A stretch of 64,000 nucleotides of DNA from an uncultured Solirubrobacterales bacterium (GCA_963774395.1 CAVZET010000006.1:431148-495147), one strand, 5' to 3'; numbered from the stretch's first letter, positions 36,817 through 47,424 are shown. Translations and numbers: made by a program. The notes: generated from the sequence alone by a model not told the origin.

Positions 36817-36870
36817 GCCGCCGAGGATATGGAAGGCGCCGGAGGTCTGGGCCTGGCGCTCAGAGCCCAC

Positions 36871-37091
36871 CGGTGACGTTGGACCACCCGGCGGAACCAA
36901 GGTGACCTCCCGCCGGCGAGAGCAGCGAGGGAGCGGTGAACGACAGCCCACCGGAGACGACTGGTCACGAAACCTCTCAACTTGAGAGGTTTCGTGACCA
37001 CCGGCAGGCGAGAGCACCGAGGAAGAGCTCAACGCAGCCCACGACGGACGGCTGGTCACGTTCCATCCTTATCAAGGACGTTTCGTGACCA
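36871..37091 (-). repeat. three tandem 91-bp repeat units in the gcvT leader, each starting with a 39-nt hairpin (37053..37091, 36962..37000, degenerate 36871..36909)
   Basis: 36962..37000 is a perfect 19+1+19 palindrome tggtcacgaaacctctcaa-c-ttgagaggtttcgtgacca. 37053..37091 keeps the 8-bp outer and 5-bp inner stems. The inter-hairpin segments align with each other (gtgggctg...tgctctcgcc). Confidence 0.8.
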
Positions 37092-37340
37092 CTCACTCCA
37101 GCCAAAGCCCCTCGCAGGCCACCCCCCTCACTGCCAAAGGGTGTCAACCGCCCACCCCTCGTCCCAGCTCACCCCAGCCCAGCCCCTCCCGCCGGCAATC
37201 GGCCACGTGAGGCTCTCTCCCGCGGGTGGCCCACAGATCGCAGGCCCCCGAGAAATGCCGGTGGCGCAGCGGGGCCTGCGCAGCTCCCGGACAGGACCCG
37301 CGGGCCGGGGACCCTCGCCGGCGACGCGCCGGCGACGCGA

Positions 37341-44413: not shown

Positions 44414-45745
44414 CTAGCGGAAGCGCTCGCCGCGCTCCTCGTAGTCGCGGAAAGCGTCGAAGCTGGCGCAGGCCGGGGCGAGCAGGACGACGTCGCCGGG
44501 CTCGGCGCCGCGTGCGGCGGCCTCGGCGACGGCGATCTCGAGCGTGCCGGAGCGGCGCATCGGCACGCCGGCGGGCGCCAGCGACTCCTCGAGCGCGTCG
44601 GCGGCCTCGCCGATCAGATAGACGGCGGCGCAGCGCTCGGCGACCGCGGGTCGCAGGTCGTCGAAACCGCCACCCTTGAGGCTGCCGCCGAGGATCGCGT
44701 GCACGGGGCGCCCGCCGAAGGAGCGGAGGGCCGCCTCCGCCGCGGCGACGTTGGTCGCCTTCGAGTCGTTGACGAAGAGCACGTCGTCGTGTTCGCCGAC
44801 CCGCTCGAGCCGGTGTGCGACACCGGCGAAGTTGCGCAGACCGCGGCCGATCGCCTCACGGGGGACGCCGCCGCAGAGCGCCGCCGCGGCGACCGCCATC
44901 GCGTTGCGGACGTTGTGCTCGCCGGCGAGGGCGAGCTCTTCGACCGGGACGAGCGCCGCGCCGTCGACCTCGATCGTGCCGTTGCGCAGCCGCACGAGGC
45001 AGCCCCCCTCAGCGCAGGCGGAGACACCGTAGGCGATGGTCGCGCCGTGCCCGGGGCGCTCGGAGGCGGCGAACGGCGCGAGGTCGGCGTCGAAGATTGC
45101 GAAGTCGGTCTGCGCCTGACCCGCGAAGATCCGCAGCTTCGCGTCGCGGTAAGCCTCGAAGCTGCCGTGGCGGTCGAGGTGATCGGGCGTGACGTTGAGC
45201 AGCACCGCGACCTCGGGCGCAAAGGCGGCGCTGTCCTCGAGCTGGAAGGACGAGCACTCGCACACGACCGTTGCGTACTCGTCGACCTGCGCCGGCAGAT
45301 CCGAGAGCGGCCGGCCGACGTTGCCGGCGACGACGACGGGCATGCCCGCCTCACGCCACACGTGTCCAAGCCATTCGACGACGGTCGTCTTGCCGTTCGT
45401 GCCGGTGACGGCGACGAATGGGTTCGGGAGCGAGCGCCAGGCGAGCTCGAGCTCACCGATCACGGGCACGCCGCGCTCGCGCGCGATCTCGATGACCGGC
45501 GCACTCGGCGGCACCCCTGGGCTCTTGATCACGAGACCGATCCCTTCGAGGTGCTGCGTGCCGTCGTCATCCAGGTGAATTTCGACGCCCGCGTCCCGCA
45601 ATCCTGCATCCACGGAAGGAGATCCCGAATCGACGGCGACGACGCGCGCGCCCGAGTCCGCGAGCAGCCGCGCAGCGGCCTGGCCCGAGCGGGCCATGCC
45701 GACGATCAGATACGGCCCCTCGGGAATCGGCGGCCTGGTTTCCAT
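44414..45745 (-). CDS. murD: UDP-N-acetylmuramoylalanine--D-glutamate ligase; intact
   Basis: 443-aa ORF: VAVTGTNGKTTV, LNVTPDHLDRHG, NDSKATN. Confidence 0.92.
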   Translation of the reverse strand: METRPPIPEGPYLIVGMARSGQAAARLLADSGARVVAVDSGSPSVDAGLRDAGVEIHLDDDGTQHLEGIGLVIKSPGVPPSAPVIEIARERGVPVIGELELAWRSLPNPFVAVTGTNGKTTVVEWLGHVWREAGMPVVVAGNVGRPLSDLPAQVDEYATVVCECSSFQLEDSAAFAPEVAVLLNVTPDHLDRHGSFEAYRDAKLRIFAGQAQTDFAIFDADLAPFAASERPGHGATIAYGVSACAEGGCLVRLRNGTIEVDGAALVPVEELALAGEHNVRNAMAVAAAALCGGVPREAIGRGLRNFAGVAHRLERVGEHDDVLFVNDSKATNVAAAEAALRSFGGRPVHAILGGSLKGGGFDDLRPAVAERCAAVYLIGEAADALEESLAPAGVPMRRSGTLEIAVAEAAARGAEPGDVVLLAPACASFDAFRDYEERGERFR

Positions 45746-46395
45746 AACGCGGATGTTCGCCGTATGGAGGCGCGACCCTGCGCGGCCGGCCGCTGCTCTC
45801 CCGGTACGCCCAGGGGCGACCGCACGAGGGCTTGGGCAACAACTCCCGACAGCGCTCCCCTCGGGCGGGGCGGTCCCAGACAGCGCCCGGCGAAGGGTCG
45901 CCGCGCGGAGCCGCGCCGCCCGCGAAGGGTGTGGCGGCGCGAGGGCAGTGAGGGAGGTCAGCCGGCGGCAGTCGCTGGCCCGGAGGCGACGGCAGACGCT
46001 AGATCTGGACCAATAGGAGCAGACACGTCCAAGGCGCCCAGATGTGTCTGCCGAGGCTGGTCCCTACGACCAGCAACTGCAGAGACGTCGGCTCGCTGCA
46101 GACGTGGCTGCTGGCATCGCGGCCGCAGGCTGCATGGGGCGCAAGGACGTCCACCTGGAGCAGACGTGGCTGCGCATATGGACGCTTCGCCCGCTCCCGC
46201 CGATGCCCAAAGGCGATAAACCGCTGACCGGAGCCGGTCCAGCGCCGTAGTCACCCGCCCCCGCGCAACGAGCGTCAGCCGTCAACCCCCCACGGCGAGG
46301 CTGGGAGCGTCGAGGGCGGTCGTTAGGGGAGCGATAGTCCGCACGGACGTGAGCGACCCCAACGGCCGCCATCGGCGCTCCCAGTCCGCCGCCGA

Positions 46396-47424
46396 CTAAA
46401 CCCCGATGGAGTTCTGGAAGAGCGTGTAGCCGATGCCGGCGCAGACGGCGGCGATGATCCAGAAGCGGAGCATGATCTTCGTCTCCGACCAGGCCATCAT
46501 CTCGAAGTGGTGGTGGATCGGGGCCATCAGGAAGACGCGGCGGCGGAAGGCCTTGAACGTGAAGACCTGGATCGCGACCGAGAGCGCCTCCATGACGAAG
46601 ATGCCGCCGAGGATGATCAGCAGGACCTCGGTCTGGGTCATGATCGCGAGGGCGCCGATCGCGCCGCCGAGCCCCAGCGATCCCGTGTCCCCCATGAAGA
46701 TCGTCGCCGGGTGTGCGTTGAACCAGAGGAAGCCGACGCAGGCGCCGACGAGGCAGGCGGAGAGCAGCGCCAGCCCCTGCTGGCCCGTCGTCACCGTGAT
46801 CGCCATGTAGGCGAGAAACACGATCGCGCAGCATCCCGCGGCGAGCCCGTCGAGCCCGTCCGTGAGGTTGACTCCGTTACTTGCGCCCGCGAGGACGAAG
46901 AAGGTGAGGACCACGTAGGCCGCCGGCCCGAGGTACAGGTGCGCGCCCCAGACGCGCAGCTGCAGGTTCGGGTCGAGGCCGACGGACTTGAACGCGAACC
47001 ACCAGAGCACCACGGCGAGGGCAATCTGGCCGAGCAGCTTCCAGCGCGCGGAGAGGCCGAGTGACCGTCGCTTGACGATCTTGACCCAGTCGTCGGCGAA
47101 CCCGAGCCCGGCGCTGCCAAGGGCGACGAGGAAGACGGCGAGGCTCTCGGTGTCTCGATCGCTGAGCACCAGGTAGGGGATCGAGATCGCCGCGAAGATG
47201 ATCAGCCCGCCCATCGTCGGGGTGCCGGCCTTTTCGTGGTGGCCCTGCGGGCCCTCCTCGCGAATTTGCTGGCCGAACTCGCGGTTGCGGAGGATCTCGA
47301 TGAACTTCGGGCCGAGGAAGATCGTGATCAGCATCGCCGCCATGCCCCCGATCAGGATCTGACCGCGGTCGATCACCGTCGAGGCGACGTCGCCGCCGAT
47401 CGCCGCCAGCAGCAGGCCCGTCAC
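46396..47424 (-). CDS. mraY: phospho-N-acetylmuramoyl-pentapeptide transferase; intact
   Basis: HHEKAGTPTMGGL, GFADDWVKI, NLTDGLDGLA, MGDTGSLGLGG, APIHHHFE. The GTG at 47424 overlaps the murF stop (GTGA). Confidence 0.92.
   Translation of the reverse strand: MTGLLLAAIGGDVASTVIDRGQILIGGMAAMLITIFLGPKFIEILRNREFGQQIREEGPQGHHEKAGTPTMGGLIIFAAISIPYLVLSDRDTESLAVFLVALGSAGLGFADDWVKIVKRRSLGLSARWKLLGQIALAVVLWWFAFKSVGLDPNLQLRVWGAHLYLGPAAYVVLTFFVLAGASNGVNLTDGLDGLAAGCCAIVFLAYMAITVTTGQQGLALLSACLVGACVGFLWFNAHPATIFMGDTGSLGLGGAIGALAIMTQTEVLLIILGGIFVMEALSVAIQVFTFKAFRRRVFLMAPIHHHFEMMAWSETKIMLRFWIIAAVCAGIGYTLFQNSIGV

Follow-up and report, generated by a model that had tools for sequence, protein, structure and literature searches.

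A repeat-filled gap between mraY and murD in a Solirubrobacterales genome and the gene-end hairpin family found in it

The window analysed here is a 64,000-nt stretch of DNA from an uncultured Solirubrobacterales bacterium (G000:C6:431148-495147, G000 being the source genome and other G numbers the genomes compared with it). In it the mraY and murD genes of a division and cell wall (dcw) cluster, both on the minus strand, are separated by exactly 650 nt (45746..46395, counted from the first letter of the window). The initial annotation had described this gap as a non-coding, repeat-rich insert in a cluster of mostly overlapping genes. Its length agrees with the coordinates, and its non-coding nature is borne out by base composition, the GC spread between codon phases being 0.04-0.24 in the gap as against 0.40-0.68 in mraY and murD. 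The 4-nt murF/mraY overlap also stands: the mechanical mraY open reading frame (ORF) extends to 47580, but the start is likely the GTG at 47424, which overlaps the murF TGA as GTGA (47421-47424). At the other end of the protein, the MraY sequences of relatives align as far as residue 392-394 of the 394-residue query at the 80 listed loci. The repeats in the gap belong to two unrelated families, not one, and the gap is not a regulator dedicated to the dcw cluster. One of the families supplies a long hairpin that begins directly behind the mraY stop codon.

Of the 650 nt, about 500 recur elsewhere in G000 (81 matches when the gap was compared with its own genome). In the BLAST coverage profile positions 45746-45885 are single copy, 45896-46115 match 10-18 other places, 46116-46265 match few, and 46286-46395 match 14-22. 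Searches with nhmmer split the repeats accordingly into family A (46270-46400) and family B (45890-46125). The two stand in like order and orientation at eight further loci, measuring 460-625 nt end to end, and alignment of the nine composite copies gives a mosaic of well-conserved modules. Read along the mRNA from mraY, the gap consists of the A hairpin, a decayed right box, three hairpin units, a left box and about 145 nt of unique sequence that ends in the murD leader (Table 1).

Do any of these pieces encode protein or belong to a described RNA family? ORFs inside the gap have no Pfam or NCBIfam match. A small ORF was rejected because it has no domain match and no codon periodicity and because copies differ by 1-nt indels; single-nucleotide differences among repeat copies are in themselves unreliable given the frame errors in the G000 assembly (3.5 Mb, 71% GC, 11 contigs, completeness 61%). 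A search of the gap against Rfam 15 returned no family, the best score being 35 bits against a gathering score of 82, and the sub-threshold matches on the long hairpin were to microRNA-precursor models only. Six diverged hairpin loci and one full composite copy likewise matched no Rfam family, and a full-text literature search found no published description of either repeat family.

The largest feature of the gap, which the initial annotation missed, is an inverted repeat at 46301-46384 with arms of 41 nt (46301-46341 and 46344-46384). As RNA, the A hairpin that contains it folds at -73.7 kcal/mol (z=-3.76). Comparison of copies shows an outer stem of about 25 bp that varies in sequence yet stays paired, and an apical core of about 50 nt that is nearly invariant. 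Covariation, counted on a MAFFT alignment of 58 distinct A copies, is strong: 85.7% of cells are paired, compared with 42-49% when the partners are slid; two-sided changes occur in 26 of the 31 pairs; and none of 500 shuffles matches the observed values. G.U pairs outnumber A.C mismatches (165 vs 80), with three positions mostly G.U, an excess in keeping with a fold on the upstream gene's sense strand. The mraY copy reads TAG-TC-GGCGGCGG...GCCGTG-GGGGG. The tail that follows it has related tails after other A copies (GGAGCGTTGACGCC and GGACCGTCACGCC).

To follow the A hairpin through other genomes we used two covariance models, R1 built from 16 A copies and the broader R2 built from 58. The relatives compared are metagenome-assembled genomes of soil Solirubrobacterales, many of which were assembled from long reads; all samples were drawn from larger groups, and absence means not found among the genomes searched. 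The hairpin occurs at 35 places in G000. With R1 it was detected in 13 of the 14 genomes sampled from the genus, in 16 of 121 from the family and in 15 of 151 from the order; R2 gave hits in 40 of the 151 Thermoleophilia genomes sampled (31 of 73 genera) and in five more genomes elsewhere in the phylum, outside the class. In these five the core ..CGGCGUCCUCGGUCGCUCACGUGC-NNNN-GCACGCUUCGCUCCCUGCGUCCUUGC.. is still recognisable.

Placement of the A hairpin is narrow. In 40 of 60 copies the start lies no more than about 7 nt from the stop codon of a long, co-oriented ORF with high GC at third codon positions (two outliers lie at +13), and often the stop is a TGA or TAG within the first five bases of the stem. 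Among copies with a stop nearby, 35 have it on the 5' side only, five on both sides, and five on the 3' side only, from a convergent gene. Six copies adjoin or overlap the 3' end of a co-oriented tRNA gene called by Rfam or ARAGORN (Lys-CTT, Arg-CCT twice, Ser-CGA, Ser-GCT and Gln-CTG), and a seventh follows a tRNA-like 3' end that neither program called. At two loci from another family of the order (L167:1436-1603 in G191 and L169:1436-1603 in G143), the hairpin opens with 9 nt that form the 3' acceptor strand of tRNA-Arg(CCT), and its far end is complementary to these, so that the hairpin would compete with the tRNA acceptor stem in the precursor.

A copies also form head-to-tail arrays with a period of 122-124 nt: five copies at G008:C3:15006-15598, three at G002:C6:440293-440649 and two at G000:C5:93530-93759. 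Such arrays resemble variable-number tandem repeats and possibly vary between strains. The genomes with few contigs and the most repeat copies (G000, G002, G005, G008 and G010) have the lowest marker completeness, 52-75%, which fits indel errors in long-read assemblies; the lower copy numbers in short-read assemblies of the genus are probably due to repeats that were broken or collapsed.

The middle of the gap is a lineage-specific modular repeat of family B. As a whole it spans about 45891-46222 and is bounded by a left box and a right box that are inverted partners. The boxes enclose three 33-nt hairpin units with a period of 60-62 nt (starting at 46019, 46079 and 46141), where other composite copies have one to two. 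The general form of the unit is GCAGNCACGTC-N11-GACGTGNCTGC, of which G000 has about 25, mostly in pairs 60 nt apart; the fifth base covaries with its partner (T.A, A.T, C.G). A smaller hairpin lies between units 1 and 2, and its position is kept in other B copies. The left box has 27 hits in G000 at up to two mismatches as against one for the reversed control, and many plus/minus pairs of boxes lie 113-416 nt apart. At the mraY-murD locus itself the right box was not recovered at up to two mismatches and was identified from the alignment of the nine composite copies.

Among the other genomes sampled, units of the B type were seen only in the closest relatives of G000, G005, G002 and G008. The left box was at control level in 120 other genomes of the family, including G007, G003 and G011 of genus g1, with the exception of G120, which belongs to another genus. 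G120 has twelve hits to the box pattern, ten of them the exact variant CAGGGCAGTGAGGGACG (for example C5:609277-609354); these may represent an independent expansion of a related modular repeat. A promoter role for the modular repeat was considered and dropped for want of a consistent relation to the downstream gene, which runs in the same direction at about three loci and is convergent at roughly four or five.

The short motifs that the initial annotation listed in the gap all exist, each 1 nt from the position it gave. The 14-mer GCAGACGTGGCTGC starts at 46098 and 46160 and has only these two copies in the window, GCAGAC lies at 45992 and 46019, CTGCAG at 46077 and 46096, and GACAGCGC at 45848 and 45879. 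The two proposed hairpins, GCAGACAC-N17-GTGTCTGC (46019-46051) and CTGGTC-N5-GACCAG (46057-46073), correspond to unit 1 and to the small hairpin; these two and unit 3 fold clearly better than shuffled sequences (z about -3.1 to -3.7), whereas the middle unit does not (z -1.6). The annotation had further suggested that the spacer is built from degenerate copies of the 22-kb/gcvT repeat family. This holds for the middle part of the gap, which has the gcvT boxes GAGGGCAGTGAGGGAGG and CTCCC..TGCCCAAAGGCG.T.AAC, but not for the hairpin at the mraY stop, which belongs to the unrelated family A. Nor do the strings cited for the link establish it: CTCGCTGCA matches over 9 nt (E=0.34) and ATCGCGGCCGCAGG has a single occurrence in the window, both near chance. 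The boxes really common to the gcvT-leader element (36817-37340) are those at 45941-45957 and 46193-46222, and there they surround different inner hairpins, 39 nt long, where the mraY-murD repeat has 33-nt hairpins centred on ACGT.

Table 1. Features of the mraY-murD gap and its flanking genes (window positions), in the direction of transcription
Feature	Position	Strand	Remarks
mraY coding sequence	46396..47424	minus	TIGR00445 E=5e-95; stop TAG at 46396-46398
A hairpin, 103 nt	46291..46393	minus	starts 2 nt after mraY TAG; best match of R1, 119 bits
Tail after A hairpin, GGGGGTTGACGGCTGACGCTCGTTG	46266..46290	minus	100% identical in G005
Decayed right box, GCTCCCGCCGATGCCCAAAGGCGATAAACC	46193..46222		family form CTCCCCTCACTGCCCAAAGGCGGTCAAC; nine-copy alignment
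Hairpin unit 3, degenerate	46141..46173		second 14-mer; 76% identical to D1 reference copy; -19.3 kcal/mol, z=-3.1
Family B homology extent	45891..46124		about 16 other G000 copies, 72-75% identity; nhmmer C6:477038-477271 and 28 other hits
Hairpin unit 2, GCAGAGACGTC-N11-GACGTGGCTGC	46079..46111		first 14-mer; -15.1 kcal/mol, z=-1.6, weakest of the three
Small hairpin, CTGGTC-CCTAC-GACCAG	46057..46073		between units 1 and 2; -13 kcal/mol, z=-3.65
Hairpin unit 1, GCAGACACGTC-N11-GATGTGTCTGC	46019..46051		fold z=-3.2
Left box, GAGGGCAGTGAGGGAGG	45941..45957		exact match at G000:C6:477088-477104; inverted partner of right box
Single-copy GC-rich stretch	45792..45890		only self-match in G000; not common to G005
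murD leader	45746..45791	minus	common to G005; without Shine-Dalgarno sequence
murD coding sequence	44414..45745	minus	TIGR01087 E=2e-118, residues 13-443

The junction between mraY and murD is an insertion hot spot across the Solirubrobacterales. Gap lengths at 77 loci from the order lie between -7 and 2287 nt (median 559), and only three gaps are shorter than 20 nt. Five genomes of the same genus have a gene for a 120-160-aa DUF2510 membrane protein at the junction (L013, L017, L019, L022, L024). Other genera have a GNAT acetyltransferase gene there (L042, L063, L070, L082, L097), or an alpha/beta-hydrolase gene (L080, L083, L084, L096, L099, L101 and others), and some loci have both. These accessory genes lie in the orientation of the dcw cluster and differ by genus. 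No similarity to any of the three was found in the G000 gap, nor any trace of them at the junction in its subclade, and a remnant of a DUF2510, GNAT or hydrolase gene was rejected on that ground.

In G000, G005, G002, G007 and G010 an A-family hairpin stands at the mraY stop. The gaps of G007 (155 nt) and G010 (165 nt) contain the hairpin only, and that of G002 (1158 nt) has three B-type units of about 230 nt each, in tandem. The closest relative is G005, whose mraY and murD are about 96-98% identical to those of G000. Its gap is 212 nt long: the first 130 nt are 100% identical to G000, the last 46 nt about 92% identical, and between these shared ends about 36 nt in G005 stand against about 474 nt in G000. 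The modular part was therefore gained or lost recently, and it is dispensable. The initial annotation had been prepared to give up its reading of the spacer should close relatives lack it, and for most of the gap, the roughly 474 nt missing from G005, this is what the comparison shows.

We consider it reasonably probable that the gap is a non-coding patchwork of interspersed repeats at an open junction, with a role for the hairpin at the level of RNA. The A hairpin would fold in the 3' untranslated RNA of mraY and would define or protect the mraY 3' end, either because the long stem is cleaved in the manner of RNase III or because the hairpin brings about termination or blocks exonucleases. 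The effect would be to uncouple mraY from murD, two genes that overlap or abut in other families of the order; murD could then be expressed by read-through combined with processing, or a promoter that has escaped recognition in the final 50-150 nt could serve it. By analogy with the gene-end stem-loops discussed below, shaping or protecting the 3' end of the mraY mRNA would be the most likely function of the hairpin, and the modular repeat is probably tolerated passenger DNA. A processing role for the hairpin would also be in keeping with its site upstream of essential genes that have no recognisable promoter.

Several observations weigh against an RNA role for the hairpin. The rows of the alignment are related repeat copies, so that covariation among A copies may be inflated, and paired arms are also expected if the hairpin is needed as single-stranded DNA for transposition. 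There is no U-run after the A hairpin here (GGGGGUUGACGG) or after other copies, and the stem-loop with U-tract of a canonical intrinsic terminator is thus absent; a consensus scan of 45600-46500 found neither a sigma-70-type promoter nor a U-tract terminator. Comparison with G005, G002, G007, G008 and G010 gave no clean empty site or target duplication. Finally, similarity between the mraY-stop hairpins of different species groups is only 76-80%, also in genomes whose mraY genes are 95-98% identical, whereas each hairpin is 89-97% like paralogues in its own genome (97% in G000, 89% in G007). This likeness within genomes suggests re-insertion or gene conversion and favours an active selfish repeat over a vertically kept site.

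Both families might accordingly be purely selfish, miniature inverted-repeat transposable elements (MITEs) or their decayed remains with no role in the cell, and we regard this as possible but rather unlikely. On such an account the placement at stop codons would reflect a target, TA or (C)TAG, that is rare and found mostly in stops at 71% GC, and the conserved core and paired arms would serve transposition instead of RNA. Longer versions with outer inverted arms bounded by CTAG/TA do exist in G034, G025, G475 and G393, and several G000 copies begin directly after TA. The within-genome homogeneity just described and the tandem arrays favour active spread, and content differs between close relatives at four loci, where the alternative sites hold other filler sequence. 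A palindromic target, however, predicts no orientation bias, yet copies follow the upstream gene by 35 to 5; it does not account for copies at tRNA 3' ends without a TAG, or for the excess of G.U pairs over A.C mismatches. The G000 copies, that at mraY among them, have no TA on the 3' side and no CTAG-bounded outer arms, and thus lack the terminal features of an IS630/Tc1-mariner MITE. The 50-nt core is kept across classes, and the arms that a transposase would normally bind vary freely. As for a source of transposase, the search was for PF13358 (DDE_3), the IS630-type domain, alone and gave no hit in the incomplete G000 assembly. The two candidate box pairs, with 0.8-1.9 kb between the boxes, hold ordinary or shadow ORFs and no transposase, and an autonomous parent element between such pairs was rejected. 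Selfish spread and an RNA role can in any case be compatible, in that a mobile element may be tolerated or favoured at gene ends for its RNA.

At the opposite pole, the A hairpin could be a domesticated, class-wide RNA 3'-end module of the Thermoleophilia, a possibility that we hold only tentatively. In that case a dedicated factor would bind to the invariant 50-nt apical domain, RNase III or a similar enzyme would cut the long variable stem, and the hairpin would in this way fix where mRNAs and tRNA precursors end in genomes without U-tract terminators; the copy at mraY would then split the dcw cluster into two expression units in the G000 clade. Very improbable, by comparison, is a regulatory RNA specific to the dcw cluster, whether a murD leader or attenuator or a small RNA gene in the gap or its middle. 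The 386-nt middle does fold somewhat better than shuffles (z=-2.3), and five species share a conserved stretch formed by the 46 nt directly upstream of murD. The middle is nevertheless absent from the junction in G005, G007 and G010 and different in G002, and about 16 other places have these modules between unrelated genes, the neighbours being convergent at roughly half of them; the lack of an Rfam match or of a promoter or terminator consensus argues in the same direction. We give almost no credence to the gap being the wreck of the DUF2510 gene of sister species or an artefact of error-rich long-read assembly. That gene does occupy exactly this junction in five genomes of the genus, and the G000 assembly, incomplete as it is, does contain many frame errors. 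However, tblastn (word size 2) with three DUF2510 proteins against the gaps of G000, G005, G002, G007 and G010 gave nothing better than E=6, no codon periodicity remains, the first 130 nt are reproduced exactly in the independent G005 assembly, and the modules recur at many loci.

How does the patchwork compare with known systems? At actinobacterial 3' ends stem-loops are typically long and without U-tracts (PMC13613805). TRIT of Mycobacterium, a hairpin of conserved sequence, has a narrow position at stop codons (PMC3152330); the current interpretation is that of an RNase III substrate that shapes 3' ends, not of a true terminator, and Correia elements are also cut by RNase III (PMC13714241). 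By description, to which our comparison with TRIT is confined, the A hairpin shares with it the occurrence in Actinobacteria, the multiple copies, the largely palindromic sequence and the narrow placement at stop codons. TRIT is however about 50 nt long and reported only from Mycobacterium, whereas the A hairpin measures about 103 nt and occurs in Thermoleophilia and a few other actinobacterial lineages; unlike TRIT, it has a covarying outer stem of about 25 bp, an asymmetric core of about 50 nt and copies after tRNA genes. The A copies also recall the Correia/NEMIS elements of Neisseria and the ERIC/IRU elements of enterobacteria, hairpin-forming MITEs that are imperfect palindromes of 100-170 nt in transcribed intergenic DNA, often at gene ends, but the G000 copies lack TA-bounded terminal repeats, and target duplications were not found. 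A conserved interior with variable arms is moreover the reverse of a typical MITE, and no transposase is linked to family A. An integron attC site was considered and rejected: the copies are dispersed and not arrayed, and the GTT/AAC triplets lie mid-stem and not at the ends.

Family B most resembles the BOX elements of Streptococcus pneumoniae (boxA-(boxB)n-boxC), which also have end boxes and a variable number of hairpin units and are dispersed between unrelated genes. This modular plan is found in family B, with the right box decayed at mraY-murD; sequence and host are unrelated to BOX, the two boxes are inverted copies of each other, and the inner units differ by subfamily. The gap also recalls the BIMEs of Escherichia coli, mosaics of short motifs, including REP sequences, that fill space inside and between operons. 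REP hairpins shield upstream mRNA from 3' exonucleases. By description REPs differ from the elements of the gap in their length of 35-40 nt, their GTAG-type head and their RAYT transposases. MIRUs of Mycobacterium, like the A hairpin, are actinobacterial, lie between genes within operons and sometimes form tandem arrays. They are direct repeats in which short ORFs are said to overlap the stop and start codons of the adjacent genes; the copies examined here, in contrast, differ by 1-nt indels and have no reading frame.

These results remove a false lead about the dcw cluster, since the large gap between mraY and murD is a dumping ground for repeats, at a junction that stays open across the Solirubrobacterales. 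With the hairpin at the mraY stop, a large family of such gene-end elements in uncultured soil Actinomycetota gains a well-documented case; this hairpin is widespread enough, and its structure constrained enough, to merit an experimental test. If it does shape transcript ends, it would help to explain how 3' ends are defined in high-GC actinobacteria without U-tract terminators and would improve operon and terminator annotation in these metagenome-assembled genomes.

Three smaller observations concern the murD end of the gap and the composite copies. In the murD leader the sequence GGCGAA(C/G)AT..GCGGTT before the ATG (45746-45765) is kept in G005, G002, G007 and G010; that its GAACAT/GAAGAT, 8 nt before the murD ATG, is the -10 box of a leaderless murD transcript is speculation. 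A block of about 75 nt, GGGCGTTCCGTATCGACTTTGCCGGCTATGTGCTGGGAAAGTCGGTGAGGTTCGG..., is near-identical in seven composite copies (L004:1400-1500, that is G000:C6 at about 415740-415836; C6 at 638 and 756 kb; C7 at 525, 591, 807 and 887 kb), whereas similarity among the adjoining modules is only 72-90%; the mraY-murD gap does not have this block, for which Rfam gives no match. At G000:C7:524700-525840 (L005:470-1610), 1.1 kb comprises a second copy of a VOC/glyoxalase-like gene (so labelled by eye, without a family scan) together with a full composite repeat. An association of composite copies with a particular neighbouring gene was rejected, this duplicate being the sole co-gained gene and not a mobility gene. 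The 1.1-kb segment is absent from G007 and G010, in which the flanking convergent genes lie 5-26 nt apart.

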